Source: Parcubacteria group bacterium GW2011_GWA2_47_26
GTDB lineage: Bacteria; Patescibacteriota; Patescibacteriia; GWA2-47-26
Length of the DNA stretch: 64,000 nt
Reading direction: 5' to 3'
NCBI GenBank assembly: GCA_001001705.1
Contig: LCOG01000002.1
Location: 20,056 to 84,055 of the forward strand
The notes below the pieces were generated by a model. The model had not been told where the DNA came from. It ran no database searches and saw only the letters and a list, made by a program, of their open reading frames with translations. Position numbers and translations under genes: made by a program. Below, in pieces: positions 4,569 to 55,660 of this stretch; the stretch's first letter is position 1; every line of letters starts with the position of its first letter.

Positions 4569-5504
4569 ATGAATATAATTTTTGTCATAATACTTGGCCT
4601 TGTCGTGGGCAGTTTTTTGAATGCCTATATTTTTCGTTTGCATAGAAGTACAACTCTTAACCCTTCCCTGCATAACCCCCTCCAACTCCCCCTTATCTTA
4701 AGGGGGAGAGATCGATCACCCCCCCCTCTTAGGATAAGAGGGGGTGAGGGGGAGTTACGAAGTGTCTGGCGCGGCAGGTCATACTGTCCAAAATGTAAAA
4801 AACCCTTAGCCTGGTATGAACTGATTCCAGTTCTGTCGTTTATTTTACAGTTGCGCCGTTGTCGCGGCTGTAAGCAAAGGATTGATTGGCAGTACCCGGT
4901 GGTGGAGTTGAGTACGGCAGTTCTGTTTGTGCTGGCTTATCTAGCACAAAGAATTATGAATCAGGCCGTAATTCATGATTTCCTATTCCTGATTCAACAA
5001 CTGGTAGCCTGGTACTTGCTTTCCGTCCTTGTCATCCTTTTCGTTTTTGATCTCCGCTATGGCCTAGTGCCGGATAGAATGGTGTTGCCTGCGATTGTGA
5101 TAGCGTTTTTTAGCATGGTCATCCTAAATGCAGTGAAGGATCCCATGATTCCCGATATAGACGGGATTCTTCGCTTCGCTCAGAATGGCACAAACCTCTA
5201 CGTTCTCTTAGCCATCGCTGTCGGCGCCGGATTTTTTGCTTTACAATACTACGCTTCAAAAGGCCGCTGGCTTGGCGCTGGCGATATTCGTATTGGCGCT
5301 TTAATGGGAGCAATGTTGGGCTGGCCGCTGATTATTGAGGCACTGGTTCTATCCTACATGATCGGCGGAGTCGTTGGACTGCTATTGATTGCAACAGGTA
5401 AAAAGCGTTTTGGCCAAACTGTGCCTTTAGGAACATTTTTAACTCTGGGCACAGCAATAACTTTTTTATATGGCGAACAAATTTGGCATTGGTATTGGGG
5501 ATAA
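4569..5504 (+). CDS. pilD: Prepilin peptidase PilD (A24 family); carries an in-frame family E palindromic element
   Basis: CPKC...CRGC tetracysteine motif before multiple TM helices, A24 peptidase core; ORF track starts at 4467 but hydrophobic N-terminus MNIIFVIILGLVVGSF starts at ATG 4569. Confidence 0.8.
   Translation: MNIIFVIILGLVVGSFLNAYIFRLHRSTTLNPSLHNPLQLPLILRGRDRSPPPLRIRGGEGELRSVWRGRSYCPKCKKPLAWYELIPVLSFILQLRRCRGCKQRIDWQYPVVELSTAVLFVLAYLAQRIMNQAVIHDFLFLIQQLVAWYLLSVLVILFVFDLRYGLVPDRMVLPAIVIAFFSMVILNAVKDPMIPDIDGILRFAQNGTNLYVLLAIAVGAGFFALQYYASKGRWLGAGDIRIGALMGAMLGWPLIIEALVLSYMIGGVVGLLLIATGKKRFGQTVPLGTFLTLGTAITFLYGEQIWHWYWG
4671..4766. repeat. Family E element (two hairpin units) within pilD
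   Basis: CATAACCCCCTCCAACTCCCCCTTATCTTAAGGGGGAGAG...CCCCCCCTCTTAGGATAAGAGGGGGTGAGGGGGAGTTACGAAGTG. Confidence 0.8.
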
Positions 5505-16923: not shown

Positions 16924-18331
16924 GAACGAGAAACGCACAGTATATCTTGATCATGCCGCGGCCACACCTCTTGATCCGCAAGTTAAAGAGGCTATGTTGC
17001 CATATCTGGGCGAACAATATGGCAACCCCTCGGCAATCTATGCGCCGGGGCGCATTGCTCGAGAAGCTTTGGATAATGCGCGCGAGACAGTAGCACAGGC
17101 TTTAAATTGCACCGCCGCCGAAATTATGTTTACCGGTAGCGGCACCGAGTCTGCTAATCTGGCCATTTTCGGCGTCGCACGAGGGTATCGTCGTGACCAA
17201 GTCACTGCCGCAGGCGCAACCCGTGACTTGGTCACAAAAGGCCACATCATCACCACCAACATTGAACATCATGCTGTTTTAAATTCCTGCAAAGCCCTTC
17301 AAAACGACGGTTTTGAAGTTACTTATTTGAAAGTAGATCATGACGGGCTTGTAACAGCCGAGCAATTTAAAGCCGCTATTCGGCCGGACACGATTTTAAT
17401 TTCCATCATGTACGCCAATAACGAGATTGGCACAATTGAGCCGATACATGAACTCACGCGCGCAATGCAAGAGCGCAAAAAAGAACTCGGACGCAAGCCA
17501 AATGACCCCCCATTTTTTCATACTGATGCCTGTCAGGCCGCGGGATATTTAGATATTGATGTGAAGAGCCTCGGGGTGGACCCCGTTAGAGGCAGGTCGC
17601 CCCAAGGTGACCGTAGCACTGCCTCTAGCGGGGTGGCCTCTAGCGGGGTGGATTTAATGACAATCAATGGAAGCAAGATTTATGGGCCCAAAGGCACTGG
17701 TGCTCTTTTTGTGCGCCGTGGCTTGAAACTGCAACCGCTAATTTATGGGGGCGGACAAGAAATGAAATTGCGCTCTGGAACAGAGAATGTGGCTGGTATT
17801 GTGGGGTTGGCCACGGCGCTTAAAATTGCGACGCAACTACGCGATAAAGAGGGGCAGCGCTTAATTGCACTGCGTGATCAACTGCTTACTGGCATTATGG
17901 ATCGCATTCCAAAGGTGGTATTAAATGGACACGCCACCAAACGTTTGCCGAACAATGTTGATGTGTCAATTTTAGACATTGAAGGCGAAGCCATGCTTTT
18001 GTATCTGGATGAGCATGGTATATATGTATCAACCGGCAGCGCTTGTGATTCCCAAGCTCTGGATCCCTCGCATGTGATTTTGGCTCTAGGCAAGCCCTAT
18101 GAATTCGCGCACGGCAGTATCCGGTTTACTTTGGGGCGCGCGACTAGCGCAGCAGATATTGATTATGTATTGGATGTCCTGTCGCAGATTGTAAGCACCC
18201 TGCGCAAAATATCGCCGGTGCGCATAGATGTGAATGCAACCGGTATAACTGCTAAGACCGCGTTTGTTGGGGACGGTCTGCCGCATTTCGTAAAACAGCA
18301 GAGTAATAGAGGAAAAAAGGACCGCCTCTAA
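16922..18331 (+). CDS. nifS: Cysteine desulfurase NifS/IscS (class V aminotransferase) with in-frame family D and C elements; stop codon lies inside a family F element
   Basis: PLP-binding region, TGSGTESANLAI, active-site Cys loop STGSACDS. Confidence 0.9.
   Translation: MNEKRTVYLDHAAATPLDPQVKEAMLPYLGEQYGNPSAIYAPGRIAREALDNARETVAQALNCTAAEIMFTGSGTESANLAIFGVARGYRRDQVTAAGATRDLVTKGHIITTNIEHHAVLNSCKALQNDGFEVTYLKVDHDGLVTAEQFKAAIRPDTILISIMYANNEIGTIEPIHELTRAMQERKKELGRKPNDPPFFHTDACQAAGYLDIDVKSLGVDPVRGRSPQGDRSTASSGVASSGVDLMTINGSKIYGPKGTGALFVRRGLKLQPLIYGGGQEMKLRSGTENVAGIVGLATALKIATQLRDKEGQRLIALRDQLLTGIMDRIPKVVLNGHATKRLPNNVDVSILDIEGEAMLLYLDEHGIYVSTGSACDSQALDPSHVILALGKPYEFAHGSIRFTLGRATSAADIDYVLDVLSQIVSTLRKISPVRIDVNATGITAKTAFVGDGLPHFVKQQSNRGKKDRL
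17192..17235. repeat. Family D element (GTGACCAAGTCAC doublet) within nifS
   Basis: GTGACCAAGTCACTGCCGCAGGCGCAACCCGTGACTTGGTCAC. Confidence 0.8.
17575..17657. repeat. Family C element within nifS (encodes VDPVRGRSPQGDRSTASSGVA)
   Basis: GTGGACCCCGTTAGAGGCAGGTCGCCCCAAGGTGACCGTAGCACTGCCTCTAGCGGGGTGGCC with duplicated terminal arm. Confidence 0.8.
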
Positions 18332-18369
18332 TTTTGCAGAGCAAAATTTAGAAGTGGTCCCTTTTTCCT
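18313..18369. repeat. Family F element containing the nifS stop codon and the iscU ORF 5' end
   Basis: GAAAAAAGGACCGCCTCTAATTTTGCAGAGCAAAATTTAGAAGTGGTCCCTTTTTCC. Confidence 0.8.
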
Positions 18370-28239: not shown

Positions 28240-30114
28240 ATGCCTTTACTCGGTAAGAAAAAACCCCCGATAGCTATCGGGGCGCCCCAGGTGACTGTGG
28301 CGGCGCAAAAAGCCAAAGCGGCCGAAGAGCGCATCGTGCTTGAAGAAGAGCGCGTATATCGGCGCGGTGTAGTTTCAGTGCGCGATATTATAGCGCCGGC
28401 TTCCATGCAGCTGACGCCTTCTTTTGTGAAGCTGGGCGATGTTTTTGTGCGCACCATTTTTGTCGTTTCTTATCCTCGCTATATCGCAGTGGGTTGGTTT
28501 ACGCCCATTGTTAATTTGCCGGTAACTTTGGATATTGGTATGTTTTTCTATCCGGTTAAGTCCGATGTTATTTTGAAGCAATTGAAGAAGAAAGTCGGCA
28601 CGCTTGAGGCCCAAGTTATTGCTGATTCGGAAAAAGGCGCTCCGCGCGATCCGATTCGCGAGACCGCCTTGCGCGATATTGAAAAGTTGCGCGACGATTT
28701 GACCCAAGGGACAGAAAAGTTTTTCCAGTTCGCTCTTTATGCGACAATTTACGCAAAAGACAAAGCCGAGCTGGAAAAGCTGACCGAGGATATAGAAGCG
28801 CTCTTCGGCAGCAAATTGATTTATTCTAAAAAAGTATTTTTCCAGGCGGAGCAAGGCTTTAATTCCACAATTCCGTTAGGCAATGACGAACTCATGATTG
28901 CCTTTAACATGAATTCCTCCCCGATTGCCTCTTCGTTTCCGTTTATCTCCGCGGATTTAACCTCGGATAACGGCATTCTCTACGGCATTAACCGTCACAA
29001 CAATAGCCTCATCCTGTTTGATCGTTTTTCTCTGCAGAATGCCAATTTCGTGGTCTTTGCCACCTCTGGCGCCGGTAAAAGCTATACCATGAAATTGGAA
29101 ATTTTGCGCTCTTTAATGCTTGGCACAGACGTAATTGTGATTGACCCGGAAATGGAATACAAGCATTTATCCGACGCGGTTGGCGGCACCTATATAAATA
29201 TTTCCCTGGCGGGCGAGGCCAAAGTAAATCCTTTTGATCTTTCGCGCCCGGTTGGCGAAGAGGTTAAGACCGAAGATATAATCCGTTCCGCGGTTATCAC
29301 GATTAAAGGATTGTTAAAAATAATGCTTGGTCAATTTACCCATGAAGAAGATGCCCTGATGGATCGCGCGCTTATTGAGACTTATGCGAAAAAAGACATT
29401 ACCGCCACCTCTGATCTTTCTAAAGTGGAGGCGCCAATTATGTCTGATTTGCAAGAAGTGCTGGAGGGCATGGAAGGCGGGGCTTCTTTGGCCGAGCGGC
29501 TGAAAAAATATACGACTGGAACATTTGGCAGTCTTATCAATAGCCCGACCAATGTTGATATGCGCAACCAGTTAGTGGTTTTCTCTGTTCGCGATTTGGA
29601 GGACGAGTTGCGGCCGATTGCCATTTACTCGTTAGTCAATTATATCTGGAATGTGGTGCGCTCGGAGCGCAAGAAAAGAATTTTGACCATTGATGAGGCT
29701 TGGTGGCTTATGCAAAATGAGGATTCGGCAAAATTCATTTTTGCGCTTGTTAAACGCGCGCGAAAATATTATCTTGGAGTAACAACCATTACGCAGGATG
29801 TAAACGACTTCCTGCTTAATCCTTACGGTAAAGCGATTGTAACCAACTCCGCCCTCCAGTTGCTTTTGAAGCAATCGCCCGCCGCTATCGATCTAGTCCA
29901 GCAGACCTTTATGCTTACTGAAGGGGAGAAATATTTACTTTTGGAATGTGCGGTTGGAGAAGGCATCTTTTTTGCCGGCGCAAAACACGCCGCTATAAAA
30001 GTCGTGGCTTCCTACGCCGAAGATCAGCTTGTTACGACCGACCCTCGCCAACTGCTTGAGCTGGAGGCGGCTAAGAAAGAATTTGAGGAACAAATGATGC
30101 CTAAGGGCCTATGA
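28240..30114 (+). CDS. virB4: VirB4/TrsE/PrgJ-family ATPase, C-terminal ATPase portion (split gene)
   Basis: Walker A FATSGAGKSYTM, Walker B ILTIDEAWWLM, conserved C-terminal motifs. Confidence 0.85.
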   Translation: MPLLGKKKPPIAIGAPQVTVAAQKAKAAEERIVLEEERVYRRGVVSVRDIIAPASMQLTPSFVKLGDVFVRTIFVVSYPRYIAVGWFTPIVNLPVTLDIGMFFYPVKSDVILKQLKKKVGTLEAQVIADSEKGAPRDPIRETALRDIEKLRDDLTQGTEKFFQFALYATIYAKDKAELEKLTEDIEALFGSKLIYSKKVFFQAEQGFNSTIPLGNDELMIAFNMNSSPIASSFPFISADLTSDNGILYGINRHNNSLILFDRFSLQNANFVVFATSGAGKSYTMKLEILRSLMLGTDVIVIDPEMEYKHLSDAVGGTYINISLAGEAKVNPFDLSRPVGEEVKTEDIIRSAVITIKGLLKIMLGQFTHEEDALMDRALIETYAKKDITATSDLSKVEAPIMSDLQEVLEGMEGGASLAERLKKYTTGTFGSLINSPTNVDMRNQLVVFSVRDLEDELRPIAIYSLVNYIWNVVRSERKKRILTIDEAWWLMQNEDSAKFIFALVKRARKYYLGVTTITQDVNDFLLNPYGKAIVTNSALQLLLKQSPAAIDLVQQTFMLTEGEKYLLLECAVGEGIFFAGAKHAAIKVVASYAEDQLVTTDPRQLLELEAAKKEFEEQMMPKGL

Positions 30115-32408: not shown

Positions 32409-34697
32409 ATGATCCGCTATAACTTATCAAGTCCAGTAAGTGCACTATCGCATATTGGCCGCACCGTGGAGACTCAACTGCGACACCTAGGAGTTCTCAC
32501 CATACAGGATCTCCTTTTTTATTTTCCGGTTCGCTACGACGATTTGCGCAATATCACCGAGATTAAAGATTTAAAAATCGGCGAAAGGGCAGTAGTGCGT
32601 GGAAAAATTGAGCTTATTCAAAGCCGCCGCAGCAAATATAGAAAGAAACTCCTTACCGAGGCCATTGTCTCTGATGCGACGGGCAGTTTAAAAATACTTT
32701 GGTTTGGCCAGCCTTGGCTAATTAAAATGTTTAAAACCGGCGATGAGCTGTATTTGGTTGGCGAAGTTAAAGACGATGGCTCCGGCGCGTATATGTCCTC
32801 GCCAAGCTATGAGCGCGCAAGCGGGCACGCGACAATTCATACGGGCCGCATTGTGCCAGTTTACGCTTTGACCGAAAAGCTTTCTCAAAAACAAGTGCGT
32901 TTTTTAATGAGTCGCGCTTTTCCGCTCGCTTCGAGCATAGTTGATTGGCTGTCTCAAGATTTGAGGACAAGATACAAATTATTGGATTTAAAACGCGCTA
33001 TTTCTTTTGTGCATTTTCCGCCGGATAATCAAAAAATGGAAGCGGCCCGGCGGCGTTTGAAATTTGATGAATTGCTGCGCTTGCAGATTTTTGCCGCTAA
33101 AGTAAAACAGGAACTCAAAAAATTACCCGCCCCGAAAGCGGTATTTAATGAGAAGGCGACAAAGCAATTTGTACAAGGCTTGCCTTTTGAGTTAACCGAG
33201 GCGCAACGCAAAGCGGCCTGGGAAATTGTCAAAGATATTAGTCGGCCGCGCCCAATGAATCGTTTGCTGGAGGGCGATGTTGGATCGGGAAAGACTGTCG
33301 TGGTTGCGATTGCGGCATTGAATGCGGTTGGTGTTTGTGACCATGTCACCGCGGCTAGTGACCTGGTCACAAACAAAGGTCAGGTGGCCATTATGGCGCC
33401 GACCGAAATTTTGGCGCGTCAACATTTCAAAACATTTTCAAAATTACTTGGACCCCATGGTGTGCAAGTAGAGTTACGCACCAGCAGTGAAAAAGGTAAA
33501 AAGGGGATTATAGACAGCAATGTAGTTGTGGGAACACATGCTTTAATACAAGACAGTGTAAAGTTCAAAGATTTGGTGCTCGCGGTTGTTGATGAACAGC
33601 ACCGTTTTGGCGTGCGTCAACGGCAAGCGCTCAAGGATAAGCGCGAGGATGGAAAAATGCCCCATCTGCTTACTTTGACCGCCACGCCAATCCCGCGTAG
33701 TTTGGCTTTAGTATTTTATGGCGATCTTGATCTCTCCGTGCTTAATGAAATGCCCAAGGGGCGGCAGAGAATTGAAACCGTGTTGGTAAGTAACGCTTCC
33801 CAACCCCCTCCTCATAAACCCACCCACCCTCCCCTTAAGTTAAGGGGAGGAGGCGAAAAAGGGACCGCCTCTAATTTTGCAAAGCAAAACTTAGAAGTGG
33901 TCCCTTTTTCGCGGGAACAGGCCTATCAATTTATCCGTACTGAAGTTGCCGCCGGCCACCAAGTCTTTTGGACATGCCCGATTATTGATCCTTCCGACAC
34001 GCTTGGTGTAAGAGCCGCGACCGAAGTATTTGAGCATTTGCGCACCGAAATTTTTTCTGATCTGCGCATTGGACTCTTACACGGGCGCATGAAGTCAAAA
34101 GAAAGAGAAAAAGTGATGGAAGCGTTTGTAGGCCCATCTTGTCATCATGAGCGTAGCGAAGGATCTCGGGATTCTTCGCCTGCGGTTCAGAATGACAGAG
34201 GACACACGATTGATATTCTCGTAGCCACGCCGGTTATTGAAGTTGGTATTGATGTGCCTAATGCTACAGTCATGGTTATTGAAGGAGCACAGCGTTTTGG
34301 CTTAGCCCAGCTTCATCAATTTCGCGGACGCGTTGGCCGGGGCGAGGCGAAATCGTATTGTTTGTTGATGGTGGAAGAAAAAGGGACCGCCTCTAATTTT
34401 GCTGCGCAAAATTTAGAAGTGGTCCCTTTTTCTGCGCGTATCAAGGCATTTTTAGAGTGCGACAATGGTTTTGAACTCGCCGAGCGCGATTTGACGCTTC
34501 GCGGTCCTGGCGATACTTATGGCATTGCCCAATCCGGTTTTCCGGAATTCAAAATCGCGAGTTTCGCGGATGTTGAAATTGCCAAAGAGGCCAAAGAAGC
34601 GGCGGAGGTGATTTTAACGCGCGATCCGGAACTTACGAACTATTCCGAGCTCAAACAGGCGATACTTGATAAAGAAGGCCGGACGCATTTAGAATAA
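32409..34697 (+). CDS. recG: ATP-dependent DNA helicase RecG carrying five in-frame palindromic elements
   Basis: Wedge domain, Walker A GDVGSGKT, DEQH box, helicase C motifs QFRGRVGR. Confidence 0.9.
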   Translation: MIRYNLSSPVSALSHIGRTVETQLRHLGVLTIQDLLFYFPVRYDDLRNITEIKDLKIGERAVVRGKIELIQSRRSKYRKKLLTEAIVSDATGSLKILWFGQPWLIKMFKTGDELYLVGEVKDDGSGAYMSSPSYERASGHATIHTGRIVPVYALTEKLSQKQVRFLMSRAFPLASSIVDWLSQDLRTRYKLLDLKRAISFVHFPPDNQKMEAARRRLKFDELLRLQIFAAKVKQELKKLPAPKAVFNEKATKQFVQGLPFELTEAQRKAAWEIVKDISRPRPMNRLLEGDVGSGKTVVVAIAALNAVGVCDHVTAASDLVTNKGQVAIMAPTEILARQHFKTFSKLLGPHGVQVELRTSSEKGKKGIIDSNVVVGTHALIQDSVKFKDLVLAVVDEQHRFGVRQRQALKDKREDGKMPHLLTLTATPIPRSLALVFYGDLDLSVLNEMPKGRQRIETVLVSNASQPPPHKPTHPPLKLRGGGEKGTASNFAKQNLEVVPFSREQAYQFIRTEVAAGHQVFWTCPIIDPSDTLGVRAATEVFEHLRTEIFSDLRIGLLHGRMKSKEREKVMEAFVGPSCHHERSEGSRDSSPAVQNDRGHTIDILVATPVIEVGIDVPNATVMVIEGAQRFGLAQLHQFRGRVGRGEAKSYCLLMVEEKGTASNFAAQNLEVVPFSARIKAFLECDNGFELAERDLTLRGPGDTYGIAQSGFPEFKIASFADVEIAKEAKEAAEVILTRDPELTNYSELKQAILDKEGRTHLE
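33337..33370. repeat. Family D short element within recG
   Basis: GTGACCATGTCACCGCGGCTAGTGACCTGGTCAC. Confidence 0.65.
33793..33854. repeat. Family E unit within recG, directly abutting a family F element
   Basis: CCCAACCCCCTCCTCATAAACCCACCCACCCTCCCCTTAAGTTAAGGGGAGGAGGCG. Confidence 0.65.
33855..33910. repeat. Family F element within recG (copy 1)
   Basis: GAAAAAGGGACCGCCTCTAATTTTGCAAAGCAAAACTTAGAAGTGGTCCCTTTTTC. Confidence 0.8.
34141..34197. repeat. Family A element (short form) within recG
   Basis: GTCATCATGAGCGTAGCGAAGGATCTCGGGATTCTTCGCCTGCGGTTCAGAATGAC. Confidence 0.8.
34376..34432. repeat. Family F element within recG (copy 2)
   Basis: GAAAAAGGGACCGCCTCTAATTTTGCTGCGCAAAATTTAGAAGTGGTCCCTTTTTCT. 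Confidence 0.8.
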
Positions 34698-34698
34698 G

Positions 34699-34775
34699 GA
34701 AAAGAGAACGCCTCTAGTAAAAAAGAGAACGCCTCTAATTTTGCTGCGCAAAATTTAGAAGTGGTCCCTTTTTCT
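34699..34775. repeat. Family F element with partial left-arm duplication, just after recG stop
   Basis: AAAAGAGAACGCCTCTAGTAAAAAAGAGAACGCCTCTAATTTTGCTGCGCAAAATTTAGAAGTGGTCCCTTTTTC. Confidence 0.75.
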
Positions 34776-34873
34776 GCCCAGCCGGTATATATGCCCCGTG
34801 TCAAATCATCTAATCATGACACCGAACCGTACACTTGGGTATACGGAGAGTGCCACAATATGCTTTCCAAAAC

Positions 34874-34909
34874 GTCCCGTGTTTGGCTCGATCGAGCCAA
34901 ACACGGGAC
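34874..34909. repeat. 36-bp perfect palindrome GTCCCGTGTTTGGCTCGATCGAGCCAAACACGGGAC
   Basis: Direct reading; followed by tandem GAAACGTCATAGG x2 at 34922..34950. Confidence 0.7.
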
Positions 34910-35254
34910 GAGTAGCGTTAAGGAAACGTCATAGGGAAACGTCATAGGGAACTAGGGTATAATTTTAGATGATTTAATTTATGACAATTTAATTTGTGCA
35001 CTTGACGCAGGATGGCCTGCTATTGTAGTATGTCAAAATTACCGCGTTGGTCAGGGGTTTTAAGTAAATGAGCCCCCTCACTAGCGCGGTAATAAATTAG
35101 CGTAAACACAGTGAACACATGGGCTGCCCACCCAAGCCGGGTGTTGTGCCAACCTTTTGATGGAGGAGCGGGGCGAATTAGCTGACACGATCCGCCACTA
35201 CGCGGGGGGTCACGAAGTACAAGCAACCTCGGACCGAAGAGGGGATCTGCAACA

Positions 35255-35516
35255 AATGAGTACGAACAACGGCAACGGTCAGAGCGGTGGGAACGGCCAC
35301 CATGGCAAGTTCCAGTCGTGCAACAACGACTTCTGCCTCCGCAATGGAGGCGTGATCGCGCCCGGCGAGTCGTGCCAGCGCGTGGGGAGCGAGCTCTTCC
35401 ACGCGGGCTGCTACCAGCTCTGGCAGCAGCACGTGGCGGAGCGTCAACGCCGTTTCGGTGGCGACGCCTCGATCCGCCACCGCACGCGCGCGGCGGTCAA
35501 CACCCTCGTCCCGTAG
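35255..35516 (+). CDS. Small Cys-containing protein encoded in a high-GC segment (start uncertain; ORF track 35157)
   Basis: GC3 about 90% in this frame versus about 50% in flanking genes; followed by a hairpin terminator. Confidence 0.3.
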
Positions 35517-35640
35517 CCCGCCAACCCCCTCACTTTTTGCTCCTTCCGTAGGCTCCTCCGCCTAAACCGCTGGCGGAGTTCGCAGCCGCAAACCCGCCCC
35601 GACACCTCGCGTGCCGGGGCCTTTTCTTTTTTGCATACAT

Positions 35641-35667
35641 AAAAAGCTCCCACATGGGGAGCCTTTT
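35641..35667. terminator. Rho-independent terminator-like hairpin AAAAAGCTCCCACATGGGGAGCCTTTT (bidirectional)
   Basis: GC stem GCTCCC/GGGAGC flanked by A-run and T-run. Confidence 0.6.
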
Positions 35668-35752
35668 GATGGGGTCCGATCACGGTGACTCGTGAGAAGC
35701 CTTATCAACAATTTAATCGTACTTGGATTCAAAAATTTAGAGCAACAATTAT

Positions 35753-35795
35753 TTCCCCTCTTAAGATAAGAGGGGATTAAGGGGAGTTATGAAGT
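35753..35795. repeat. Family E unit, intergenic
   Basis: ATTTCCCCTCTTAAGATAAGAGGGGATTAAGGGGAGTTATGAAGT. Confidence 0.6.
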
Positions 35796-35883
35796 ATGAA
35801 GAGAGTCATATATTTAACATTAGTTTCATAACCCCTCCCGCAGCACCTCGGACGCGGGTTGTTTTTTATCTACAAGCTATACT

Positions 35884-37458
35884 TTATGGACATGGTCTGC
35901 TTTCCAGGCCTTTGATCAAATTTGTGGGATCCAGTAGTGACGGTGGTTTTGTAATTAGAAATTCTCGCGCACATTTGTTAGTGCCGATAGTACTCTGCCC
36001 CGGGGGGGGATTCCATCTAAAATTTCTTCGTGCCCGTCCTGGATAAGCTTCAAGGTGTAACATATCACAAAATGTGGCTTTTCCAAGAGTTTGTCCTTTA
36101 GTCACAGTGGCTCGCGCTCTTATACTGGATGGAACCGTTCCGCTATTTATCTCTCCGTATACTACCGTGATGTTGAGTTTTGGATGAAATACAAGTACAG
36201 CTACGCTTTGTCCCCCGCTGCATGGATAAAAATTATAAGTGTTAACAACCTCACCGCTGTCCAGCGCTACTACTTCGCCATCGCCTTGAGTATAAAGGTC
36301 AATCCCGGCGTGGCATCTCGCCCCTTGGGCACGGTCATCGCCCCAATTCCAAGAGATTTGTTGTAGACTGCCGGTCTTTATTGGGAGACATTGGTCCGTG
36401 ATGTTGTAGTTTGTAGCCCCGGTGGTCCATGTCCCAGTTTCTCGAATTTCCTCACCTGCTCCCGGGGGCTCAAGCTCTATCTTTTCTATTTGCTCTACTC
36501 GCAACGGCTGAAAAACCACCAAATCTGGATTTATAATCATCAAAATTATGTACGATCCCAAAACCAGTATAAGTCCAACCGAGGCATCCGCGATTTTGCG
36601 TTTGGCGTCGCTTATTTTATCCGGACTGCCGCCGGCGGTGAGCCATTTGAATCCGGCGTAAACAATCATTATTCCCGCGATTACCCCCACCACGGAAACC
36701 AAAAATTTATATACTGCGGCCAGGTATTGAGCGAGAAAATCAATGATCAGAAATTCTCTATCGCCTTCAGTTGTTCTAAATGGCACGGTAAAAGGTTGCA
36801 GTGTAACGAGCGGAATTTGCAAGCGGGGAAGAGCGATTTGAGCTGGGGGGAGTTCGGAGGTTGGAACGCATTGAGAGACAAATGTGCGTGTGGCCCGATG
36901 CCCCTCTTCTCTGATCTGACATCTAAACCCACTTGCGCAATCAGCATCTGTACCACACCCCTCACTTGCTGCTGTTAAAACACATCTCTCACTTTGACAT
37001 TGTAAGTTTGGCGAAGAAGAAGATACACATTGACTATTATTATTACAAGGGCATCCAATGGGCATGAACCCGTTGTGCCCCGGCCCTCTCGGCGCCATGA
37101 TGTCAGAAAAAGACATGCATGCATTGCGTGGCGAAACCCAAGCCTGACCCGCCGAGCATCGTCGATCGTTACAGTTTATAGTTTCAGCTGTTCCTTCGCC
37201 GCCTTGACATACGCGTAAACTCGTATTACATATTCCACCTCTTCCACAATCTGAATTACTTAAACATGCGCCCCCGCTATGAAAATATGCGGTTTGCATG
37301 CATTGCCTTGCGGCGAACTGGCAGAGATGGGGAGGGGCAAGACTAGCGCAATCGGAATCTTGGGTACAAGGTGTTGCTTGCGAGGTTAGCGGTAACATGA
37401 ATAATAGCAATGAAATAATGCTGAGCACTAAAAGCAATTGTTTTTGCGACCGTAACAT
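35884..37458 (-). CDS. Secreted Cys-rich protein with central TM hairpin (TrbC/VirB2-like) and C-terminal M23 (LytM) peptidase domain
   Basis: Signal peptide; repeated C-x-x-D-x-D-C motifs; two TM helices separated by a charged loop; M23 signatures HAGIDL...G.V.A...G.V and HLH (MLHLEAY). Confidence 0.7.
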   Translation of the reverse strand: MLRSQKQLLLVLSIISLLLFMLPLTSQATPCTQDSDCASLAPPHLCQFAARQCMQTAYFHSGGACLSNSDCGRGGICNTSLRVCQGGEGTAETINCNDRRCSAGQAWVSPRNACMSFSDIMAPRGPGHNGFMPIGCPCNNNSQCVSSSSPNLQCQSERCVLTAASEGCGTDADCASGFRCQIREEGHRATRTFVSQCVPTSELPPAQIALPRLQIPLVTLQPFTVPFRTTEGDREFLIIDFLAQYLAAVYKFLVSVVGVIAGIMIVYAGFKWLTAGGSPDKISDAKRKIADASVGLILVLGSYIILMIINPDLVVFQPLRVEQIEKIELEPPGAGEEIRETGTWTTGATNYNITDQCLPIKTGSLQQISWNWGDDRAQGARCHAGIDLYTQGDGEVVALDSGEVVNTYNFYPCSGGQSVAVLVFHPKLNITVVYGEINSGTVPSSIRARATVTKGQTLGKATFCDMLHLEAYPGRARRNFRWNPPPGQSTIGTNKCAREFLITKPPSLLDPTNLIKGLESRPCP

Positions 37459-43303: not shown

Positions 43304-44140
43304 GTGATTTGTGAGAATATGACCATTGGCATTTTTGATTCAGGGCTGGGTGGGCTTACAGTAGCAAAAGAGATCATGCGGGTTTTACCCGTGCAGAAGA
43401 TCGTTTATTTTGGCGATACTGCCCGTGCGCCTTATGGCGGTAAAAGCCCGCAGGAGGTTGCCAAGTACGCCCTGGAAAATACGCAATTTTTGCTCAAGAA
43501 AAAAGCTAAGACGATTGTTATAGGTTGTAATACCGCTTCAGCCGTGGCCGGGGAGATTCTGCGCAAGAAATTTTCAGATGTTCCAATTCTTGAAGTTATA
43601 ACCCCCGCAGTGCGAGAGGCTTTGAGACTTACACGAACTGGTAGGGTTGGCGTTATCGGTACGCGCACTACAATTCAAAGCGGCGCATATCAACGCTGGT
43701 GTTCTATTTATACGCGAGCCTGTCCTTTATTTGTTCCACTGGTTGAAGCTGGTCACCTTGATCATCCGGCAACACAAAATGTAGCTTACCGGTATTTAAA
43801 ACCATTGAAAGACGCGCGTATTGATACCCTGATTCTTGGCTGTACGCATTATCCCTTTCTAAAATCCGTTATCTCGCGTATTATGGGTAGTAATGTACAA
43901 CTGGTAGATTCCGCGCAGACAGTGGCAAAGGAAGTTGTTGCGTTCATAACCCCTCCCACCTCCCCTTATCTTAAGGGGAGGAGTCTAGTTGGTTCCTCTC
44001 TTAAGTTAAGAGGGGCAGGGGGAGTTATGAAAGTGCCAAAACACGAGTTCTACGTGAGTCAAATTACGCCCAAATTCCGTGAGCTTGCGGAAAAATGGCT
44101 AGGGCAAGAGATAATGCTTAAGATTGCTAAGAGAGTGTAG
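43304..44140 (+). CDS. murI: Glutamate racemase MurI (in-frame family E element near C-terminus)
   Basis: IGIFDSGLGGLTV, GDTARAPYG, GCTHYP motifs. Confidence 0.9.
   Translation: MICENMTIGIFDSGLGGLTVAKEIMRVLPVQKIVYFGDTARAPYGGKSPQEVAKYALENTQFLLKKKAKTIVIGCNTASAVAGEILRKKFSDVPILEVITPAVREALRLTRTGRVGVIGTRTTIQSGAYQRWCSIYTRACPLFVPLVEAGHLDHPATQNVAYRYLKPLKDARIDTLILGCTHYPFLKSVISRIMGSNVQLVDSAQTVAKEVVAFITPPTSPYLKGRSLVGSSLKLRGAGGVMKVPKHEFYVSQITPKFRELAEKWLGQEIMLKIAKRV
43945..44034. repeat. Family E double unit within murI
   Basis: CATAACCCCTCCCACCTCCCCTTATCTTAAGGGGAGGAG...CCTCTCTTAAGTTAAGAGGGGCAGGGGGAGTTATGAAAGTG. Confidence 0.8.
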
Positions 44141-55480: not shown

Positions 55481-55595
55481 ATGGAAAAAATTATATTCGG
55501 CAACAGTCCCATTAAGACAAGACGAAGCAAGCTCTAAAACTCTCGTTCCGAAATTGACACGATCGTGTCAATTTCGGGATAGCCTGCGGGACCGA

Positions 55596-55660
55596 AAAAG
55601 AGAACACTTCTAAATTTTGCAAAGCAAAATTAGAGGCGTTCTCTTTTTCGGCGTTCTCTT
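55596..55660. repeat. Family F element with right-arm duplication, intergenic
   Basis: GAAAAAGAGAACACTTCTAAATTTTGCAAAGCAAAATTAGAGGCGTTCTCTTTTTCGGCGTTCTCTTTTTCC. Confidence 0.7.

Follow-up and report, generated by a model that had tools for sequence, protein, structure and literature searches.

The DNA analysed here is a window of 64,000 nucleotides (nt) from contig LCOG01000002.1 of Parcubacteria group bacterium GW2011_GWA2_47_26, and the subject of this work is a short GC-rich island in that window and the small gene that it carries. The island lies in the gap between recG on the plus strand and a convergent gene on the minus strand (35884-37458) for a pilin-like protein of the type IV secretion system (T4SS) type, fused to a cell-wall hydrolase. 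All coordinates are positions in the window, and L-numbers denote loci or assemblies fetched from relatives or from the same population. Counted per 200 nt, G+C rises from 0.405 (34900-35099) to 0.585 (35100-35299) and then 0.69-0.695 (35300-35599), and falls to 0.435 (35600-35799). The 500-nt segment starting at 35101 has the highest G+C of the whole window, 0.642 against a mean of 0.468 and a standard deviation of 0.033, i.e., a departure of more than five standard deviations, and the second-highest island reaches 0.556 only. The abrupt jump in composition reported in an initial annotation of this DNA was confirmed, 35100-35640 being the G+C peak of the 64 kb.

The island contains an open reading frame (ORF) of 86 amino acids (aa) on the plus strand, 35256-35516, evident from its translation and its three-base periodicity. 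Its G+C at first, second and third codon positions is 0.64, 0.50, and 0.88, and only 2% of the third positions are A and 9% T. The G+C at third positions (GC3) of the other ORFs of at least 150 aa in the window (n = 56) is 0.46 ± 0.05 with a maximum of 0.62. The value of near 90% given earlier for the small ORF agrees with this measurement, and its interpretation as genuine coding sequence from a high-GC organism holds for the coding part but not for a recent high-GC donor (see below). The frame 35157-35516 was correctly described, whereas the start codon had been placed one base off, at 35255, the ATG being 35256-35258. A longer reading from TTG at 35157 is broken in one assembly of the same population (L001) by an extra G in the run 35204-35209, and the ATG at 35256 is therefore the likely start.

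The ORF is embedded in what looks like a complete transcription unit. A promoter-like stretch had been suspected ahead of it, and a consensus scan finds a near-consensus sigma-70-type pattern match there (TTGACG-18 nt-TAGTAT, 35002-35031, plus strand). Directly downstream, at the predicted 5' end of the transcript, an inverted-repeat search gave a hairpin with 20-nt arms that are 85% complementary and a loop of 16 nt (35038-35093, plus strand); it also appears in the minimum-free-energy fold, and it may serve to stabilise the mRNA. The leader of about 220 nt carries a short conserved hairpin, the inverted repeat GGGCTGCCCACCC (family consensus GGGYTGCCMWCCC) at 35121-35133 on the plus strand, 135 nt before the ATG, which is the sole match of its motif in the window. 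A Shine-Dalgarno-like GAAGAGGGGA (35236-35245, plus strand) can be read from the sequence 10 nt 5' of the ATG. The encoded protein is MSTNNGNGQSGGNGHHGKFQSCNNDFCLRNGGVIAPGESCQRVGSELFHAGCYQLWQQHVAERQRRFGGDASIRHRTRAAVNTLVP, including the peptides FQSCNNDFCLR and VGSELFHAGCYQLWQQHVAER, and alignments place a putative zinc-finger core, S-C-x4-C-x2-N-GGVI-x-PG ... F-H-x2-C, at residues 21-52 (35316-35411), where C22, C27, H49, and C52 are the candidate zinc ligands. The ORF is followed by a 3' untranslated region (UTR; 35517-35634) of 70% G+C, which closes in a terminator-like hairpin (35605-35619) followed by TTTTCTTTTTT; terminators similar to this CCCCGnnnnCCTCGCGnGCCGGGG-T-run are seen in L013, L044, and L051. 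A second terminator-like hairpin, GCTCCCACATGGGGAGC, occupies 35646-35668 with its stem at 35646-35662 and is followed by CTTTTGA. As it has an A-run ahead and a T-run behind, either strand could be terminated by it. The single hairpin terminator of the initial annotation (35641-35667) is thus terminator-like as proposed, but it is one of two. Promoter, ribosome-binding site, periodic ORF and intrinsic terminator, i.e., the features of an ordinary monocistronic gene, are all present as sequence patterns; they keep their positions in relatives, and transcription and translation are predicted accordingly from these patterns.

Syntenic loci of relatives were fetched from related genomes and metagenome contigs with RecG as anchor. 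They define a clade, its named members being Candidatus Uhrbacteria, in which RecG is 58-73% identical to that of the window and in which the gene order is the same wherever contigs reach: a 163-aa hypothetical protein, recG (plus), the gap with the GC-rich island, the T4SS-pilin/cell-wall hydrolase fusion (minus), DsbA (minus), and a PD40 protein (minus). A G+C island is present between recG and the pilin gene in all eleven other species with a readable gap, and hence in twelve of twelve of these groundwater bacteria when the window is included. Peaks in the relatives reach 0.62-0.81 per 100-200 nt where the locus means are 0.47-0.55, and each island has a small plus-strand ORF with a GC3 of 0.63-0.94, compared to 0.37-0.59 for recG in the same genomes. 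In all eleven related species these ORFs are GC3-rich and of the zinc-knuckle type. The window ORF has detectable homology by tblastn to those of at least four relatives, L047 (E 3.6e-6), L046 (7.7e-6), L049 (1.7e-4), and L045 (3e-3). The island is missing from the more distant loci L021-L027, where the C-terminal part of RecG is about 46-50% identical, and none is found by the next-best full-length RecG proteins (at most 47% identical; Falkowbacteria and others). In these distant loci other genes follow recG wherever this could be read.

The regulatory ends of the unit are shared as well. Of the 11 loci scanned, 10 have a promoter of the form TTGAC-N16-18-TANNNT between recG and the small ORF, and in L051 one was also recognised by eye; in relatives it is usually located no more than about 45 nt past the recG stop codon. 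Hairpins directly after the promoter are found in relatives too, with different sequences. Leaders are 150-560 nt long and purine-rich over their last 150 nt, relatives have purine-rich GGAG/GGGG motifs ahead of the start codon, and L019 shares the start context CAACAA[AG]TG. In 11 of the 12 species an inverted repeat, GGGYUGCCMWCCC, lies on the plus strand 120-190 nt 5' of the ATG, and the fetched loci that were scanned contain no other copy. In most species this repeat folds into a short hairpin, and since its distance to the promoter varies, an RNA element fits better than an operator. The motif occurs at 35121-35133 and at equivalent leader positions in L013, L014, L020, L043-L047, L049, and L051; its commonest form is GGGTTGCCAACCC, for which two folds are possible, one with a 3-bp stem and the 7-nt loop UUGCCAA and another with a 5-bp stem and a GCC triloop. 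The loop UUGCCAA is equal to the anticodon loop of E. coli tRNA-Gly(GCC); mimicry of a tRNA is conceivable as a lead only, and the motif may instead be a protein-binding site or the resemblance due to chance. The 3' UTRs of relatives are GC-rich and close in related terminators, and both the leader hairpin and the terminator are common to ORFs of different subtypes. Across the loci compared, the high G+C is an old and maintained property of the slot.

The window differs from its relatives only in that the distance from recG to the promoter is longer by about 300 nt, a stretch that holds a copy of a dispersed 55-nt repeat, a palindrome and tandem 13-mers. The palindrome had been described as a perfect one of 36 bp; it is perfect but 38 bp long, with 19-nt arms that are 100% complementary (34873-34910). 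The 13-mers occupy 34919-34944, and a third, incomplete copy extends to 34953; palindrome and 13-mers are both unique in the window. As neither has a counterpart in any relative, they fall outside the conserved unit to which they had seemed to belong. The repeat of about 55 nt (AAAAAGGGACCGCCTCTAATTTTGC..CAAAATTTAGAAGTGGTCCCTTTTT) is palindromic and has five copies in the window, at 33856-33910, 34378-34435, 34720-34777, 18323-18367, and 55594-55648 (minus). The first two lie in frame within recG and add the peptides KGTASNFAKQNLEVVPFS and KGTASNFAAQNLEVVPFS to its product. RecG proteins of relatives have other inserts at nearby positions, e.g., ..SPTRGEGVKTNPPPLVGGVRGGGQ.., which occurs twice in L014 and once in L013. 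Such repeats resemble the palindromic elements of Rickettsia, which are likewise inserted within genes without loss of the frame.

Independent assemblies (ENA, JGI, NCBI, and Logan) were retrieved by exact look-up of the flanking proteins, and they represent one groundwater population, Parcubacteria group bacterium GW2011_GWA2_47_26 / GWC2_45_7. In six of these the sequence runs through recG, the entire island and the pilin gene, and between 34600 and 35839 it is 100% identical to the window (99.9% in one). Variation of the island across assemblies amounts to one single-nucleotide polymorphism (SNP) and one homopolymer insertion/deletion (indel). Differences between assemblies fall outside the island. 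At 35838/35839 all assemblies that cover this point have 106 nt more than the window, a stretch that carries another short palindrome, and one assembly has a deletion of 42 nt (35740-35781). The region 35740-35840, which adjoins the island, contains a short dispersed palindromic element (CCCCTCTTAAGATAAGAGGGG and variants) that is also found at 4722-4744 and 43994-44016. It is polymorphic in the population, and several contigs end there. Short-read assemblies often break at the edges of the slot: L050 ends 90 nt past recG, and L006, L007, and L008 end at 35741-35755. Such breaks may reflect strain-level indels of small palindromes or poor coverage of the GC-rich stretch.

The product of the small gene has four cysteines (C22, C27, C41, and C52) and, as had been noted, no obvious family: Pfam, NCBIfam, PHROGs, and PADLOC gave no match. 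The in-frame 86-aa protein retrieved itself only from 5.8 billion cluster representatives, and an exhaustive phmmer scan of 1.84 billion representatives (about 15 billion proteins) again gave the protein itself, beyond two matches (P0002 and P0003) that are long repeat proteins and were counted as noise. No match to it was obtained by blastn and tblastn against phage and plasmid records, nor was a homologue found in scans of viral and metagenome contigs. A profile of the full-length protein had no match in the PDB, and a literature search gave no description of this gene or of the G+C phenomenon.

A family can nevertheless be defined from the orthologues in the slot. It has an N-terminal "GNG" stretch followed by the motif S-C-x4-C-x2-N-GG-[VI]-I-x-PG-[DE]-x(9-13)-[YF]-H-x2-C, in which the S, both Cys, the N, a G, and the last Cys are invariant in six core sequences (two alignments). 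The tail after the motif is rich in Ala, Arg, Gly, and Pro and is unalignable between species. There are variants, type A' (L013 and L044), type C (L014 and L043) and a further one in L019, and in each of them a Cys pair comes early and a His/Cys follows later. The early pair is C-x4-C in the core family and C-x2-C in types A' and C. The best match of the core profile in the PDB was the first zinc finger of PINCH LIM1, with a marginal E of 0.025-0.039. The alignment is in register at the second Cys, the GG-hydrophobic stretch, the P and YH-x2-C, and both have the arrangement Cys...Cys-(~17-21 residues)-His-x2-Cys (PDB 3f6q, 2kbx, and 1g47). Locally the sequences are alike, GGF-AP-EK-IV-NSNGELYHEQC in PINCH LIM1 and GGVI-PGDE-VVVDEGGxPYHRAC in the small family. 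The LIM domain of eukaryotes, however, consists of two contiguous fingers, of the form C-x2-C-x16-23-H-x2-C and C-x2-C-x16-21-C-x2-C/H/D, whereas the small bacterial family has one finger and a basic, poorly conserved tail; no Cys/His cluster for a second contiguous finger follows H49-x2-C52, and no member matches Pfam LIM (PF00412), even at E up to 10. The family may thus be called LIM-half-like, on a marginal match, and not a LIM domain.

Two other relationships were considered. TRASH/ribosomal L24e and Prok-RING_1 are likewise short treble-clef-like Cys/His modules, the first of the form C-x2-C-x19-22-C-x3-C, and the pattern "I-x-PG ... V..D.G" recalls L24e by eye, but neither kinship was supported. 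For L24e the hhalign probability was 0.6% (E 0.094, against a typed-in L24e sequence), and there was no match to Pfam YHS, L24e, or zf-FCS. Prok-RING_1 (PF14446) matched two of nine members with a best E of 0.0069, below the gathering threshold, and did not match the window protein. The arrangement of the Cys and His residues suggests that the protein binds zinc, and on that prediction the gene would belong to the broad class of small prokaryotic zinc-finger proteins. An example of these is Brz of Halobacterium salinarum, a small one-domain zinc-finger protein (PMC2253796). Like such proteins, the product is short, has one putative zinc motif and is encoded by a separate small gene beside possible targets that often goes unannotated. 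Unlike here, the Brz genome is uniformly high in G+C and there is no compositional anomaly; the two are likened by type and not by sequence.

Several signs of translation come together: a three-base periodicity with GC-rich third positions and second positions at about 0.5, a Shine-Dalgarno sequence that is kept, and Cys, His, Asn, and Gly columns that are conserved amid divergence. In addition, every indel between orthologue pairs is frame-preserving, so that the C-termini can still be aligned ("RRDWA" and "RRGWV" in L047 and L049). ORF 35256-35516 is a genuine small gene that is specific to the clade, has regulatory signals of its own and encodes a Cys/His module. In two relatives the slot holds, in tandem, a second GC-rich unit (unit b; 5508-6040 in L020 and 5366-5890 in L043) with its own promoter and terminator. 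Its ORF of 107-111 aa (MDPVRIDCLACPEPH...) has a GC3 of 0.78-0.81, and the two copies are 82% identical. The proportion of non-synonymous differences (pN) is 0.09 and that of synonymous differences (pS) 0.29, i.e., purifying selection is clear. Unit b is a constrained protein of another unnamed family.

The high G+C follows the parts of the unit closely. The ORF has a mean G+C of 0.68 and the 3' UTR one of 0.62, compared to 0.50 for both the leader and the locus as a whole, and between the tandem units of L020 the G+C goes down to 0.45-0.53 in parts. GC3 is 0.63-0.94 in all units versus 0.36-0.61 for recG and the genes of IF3, L20, L35, and other neighbours. As the ribosomal protein and IF3 genes reach this latter range only, the codon preference of highly expressed genes is not the cause. 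RecG residues differ by 27-42% between the species, and over such a divergence a foreign composition should have decayed. The standard ratio of non-synonymous to synonymous substitution rates (dN/dS) is uninformative because pS saturates low when GC3 is near 0.9, and pS and pN were instead compared with those of neighbouring genes. Of seven genes compared between L047 and L049, none has a lower pS than the small ORF (0.21, neighbours 0.35-0.79), and its pN is among the highest (0.21, others 0.03-0.28). At conserved residues encoded by four-fold boxes, 8 of 49 third positions differ in the small ORF as opposed to 124 of 321 in recG. Native ORFs also fold somewhat more stably than their synonymous-codon shuffles; the mean z of 13 units is -1.15, and that of the window ORF is -2.35. 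A force that is constant across lineages keeps the G+C of the slot high.

The explanation that we favour, and consider probable, is that of a monocistronic unit ancestral to the Uhrbacteria-like clade, with a zinc-finger-like product and a G+C content kept high by selection. The unit would have been ancestral to this clade of Parcubacteria and have stayed in a fixed slot between recG and the convergent T4SS-pilin/hydrolase gene. Its product would consist of one N-terminal C-C-H-C zinc-finger-like module and a basic, poorly conserved tail rich in Arg, Ala, and Gly. The basic tail, the small size, the T4SS-pilin/hydrolase neighbourhood and the conserved leader hairpin are suggestive of a small regulator that binds nucleic acid or protein, and it is conceivable that the protein feeds back on its own leader hairpin. 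The preferred cause of the composition is selection for a GC-rich, strongly folded and long-lived mRNA. Outside the finger the protein would be nearly free to vary, so that the pressure on G+C becomes visible at third positions and as an enrichment for Gly, Ala, Arg, and Pro. Selection on the mRNA is favoured because the enrichment tracks the boundaries of the unit and because the unit has 5' hairpins and double terminators. The high G+C is not a trace of foreign origin, since every lineage keeps it over the ORF and the 3' UTR and not over the leader. A further suggestion, which we regard as doubtful although well possible, is that a slot held at 65-74% G+C through species-level divergence, in genomes of 47-55%, implies that the nucleic acid itself is selected independently of the protein, as a stable, structured or dual-function mRNA or as a DNA-level feature beside recG, or else that biased gene conversion is unusually strong and sharply bounded.

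A number of observations weigh against the favoured explanation. The match to LIM is marginal (E 0.025 against the PDB), the Pfam LIM model is silent and the first Cys pair is spaced by four residues instead of two. Single-sequence AlphaFold2 models are of low confidence and contradict each other, one being a beta-hairpin plus helix (pLDDT 52) and the other all-helical (pLDDT 68), and a Foldseek search with the predicted model gave no match. Transcription, translation, and metal binding of the small gene are predictions made from sequence. The excess of folding stability is uneven, z being near 0 or above in 6 of the 13 units. The low pS points to a compositional constraint, which either selection or a biased process could produce. 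Finally, in the comparison of the close relatives L020 and L043 the leader and the 3' UTR align and ORF a, the first of the tandem pair, does not, so that replacement or very rapid divergence fits as well as relaxed constraint.

The serious rival of selection on the mRNA is that the slot is recombination-prone and fast-evolving, and that its G+C is raised and its protein change accelerated by GC-biased gene conversion or by some other local mutational bias toward GC, with no selection on RNA. We consider this unlikely. It would account for a G+C that is raised at every codon position and in the non-coding 3' UTR, for proteins enriched in Ala, Arg, Gly, and Pro, for a pN/pS of about 1 between L047 and L049, and for an ORF a that is unalignable between L020 and L043 though its flanks are 75-85% identical. 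A tendency of recombining bacterial genes toward higher GC3 is described by Lassalle et al. (2015; PMC4450053). The slot is like cases of gene conversion in bacteria in that GC3 rises locally, amino-acid change is accelerated and pN/pS is close to 1. The mouse Fxy gene, in which GC3 rose and amino-acid change accelerated after the move into the pseudoautosomal region, is comparable. On the other hand, the enrichment here has a scale of about 500 nt, follows transcript-unit boundaries and is far larger in magnitude: the shifts in GC3 reported for bacteria amount to a few percent, not to a change from 0.45 to 0.9. It ends where the unit ends, and does not extend to the leaders (mean 0.50) or, in L020, to the spacer that separates units a and b (0.45-0.53 in places). 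GC3 is ordinary in recG and the pilin gene on either side, and no variation of the island is seen within the population sampled.

Recent acquisition from a high-GC host, a phage, or a plasmid was the first candidate in the initial annotation, and we consider it very unlikely. The codon usage, with its G- and C-ending codons, is like that of a high-GC organism, the composition jumps sharply and the gene is an orphan in the databases; a sharp local deviation in G+C and GC3 and the orphan status are shared with acquired genomic islets. However, the anomaly is conserved at one slot in twelve species with shared regulatory ends: all eleven readable related species have a GC-rich orthologue in the same place, and the promoter, leader hairpin, and terminator are common to relatives. 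No donor homologue was found in any high-GC organism, phage, or plasmid searched, and the borders have neither flanking direct repeats nor an integrase or a tRNA.

An RNA gene had also been proposed, and a structured non-coding or dual-function RNA with the ORF secondary is just as improbable as recent acquisition. Over 636 nt the predicted fold is more stable than that of dinucleotide shuffles, on either strand (z -4.7 and -4.2), synonymous sites show unusual conservation, the mean z against codon shuffles is below zero and there is a conserved hairpin, in the leader and not in the ORF. The z of such a long region is, however, inflated as shuffling blends AT-rich and GC-rich parts, and the nucleotides of the ORF are barely alignable between species, so that no conserved fold is visible. 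A periodic sequence with conserved Cys/His codons and frame-preserving indels is not expected of a non-coding RNA. Rfam was negative as well; the window gave three tRNAs only, all elsewhere, and 34700-36000 contained nothing at gathering thresholds and nothing credible at E up to 10.

That the real gene is instead the antisense ORF on the minus strand (35178-35480, 100 aa) is extremely unlikely. Gene callers chose it in several assemblies and in L049, and a long antisense ORF is present in every species, but a sense strand that avoids A-ending codons (TTA, CTA, and TCA) automatically leaves this frame free of stops. Its G+C at first positions would be 0.72-0.93, which is not protein-like, whereas promoter, Shine-Dalgarno sequence, and terminators face the plus strand, and the conserved Cys/His motif lies in the plus frame. 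Lastly, the sharp break in composition, an Asn-rich N-terminus using AAC codons and quick divergence of the protein between species could recall an assembly chimera, as the initial annotation had considered, or a hypermutation target of a diversity-generating retroelement (DGR), but both are almost certainly wrong: the two junctions are spanned by at least six independent assemblies from different samples, the 64-kb window has no second, template-like copy of the island, no reverse transcriptase was called in 22 kb around the slot, and the single SNP and homopolymer indel amount to no ongoing diversification.

The wider neighbourhood of the small gene is of a particular kind. Just 5' of recG, at 28240-30114 and upstream, the gene list of L009 shows a conjugation-like type IV secretion set (PrgI-like, TraC-like, and a VirB4/TraG-type ATPase), and with the pilin gene downstream this places the GC-rich gene inside a T4SS/pilin neighbourhood. 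The hydrolase or peptidase fused to the pilin-like protein differs by species; it is M23 in the window, SLT in L043, L044, and L046, a C39-like peptidase in L047 and, by a faint match, NlpC/P60 in L045. This variety looks like domain swapping in a protein of the cell surface or of cell contacts. With the pilin/M23 protein as query no relatives were found in species genomes.

A compositional outlier that resembles textbook horizontal transfer is in this case, on the favoured explanation, an old and vertically kept gene. Anomalies in G+C and GC3 can by themselves mislead programs that search for genomic islands, especially in genomes of the Candidate Phyla Radiation (CPR), and gene callers are inconsistent on the small gene, which was missed, called as 86 aa or 118 aa, or placed on the wrong strand. 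The G+C anomaly is persistent and sharply bounded. As conservation is greater at synonymous than at non-synonymous sites and the enrichment in G+C is limited to the ORF and 3' UTR, the slot offers a compact natural test case for selection on mRNA composition versus biased gene conversion in bacteria. For the organisms themselves, the gene adds a previously unnamed family of small zinc-finger-like proteins that is restricted to Uhrbacteria-like Parcubacteria, and it adjoins a T4SS-pilin/cell-wall-hydrolase cluster that may mediate contact with other cells.

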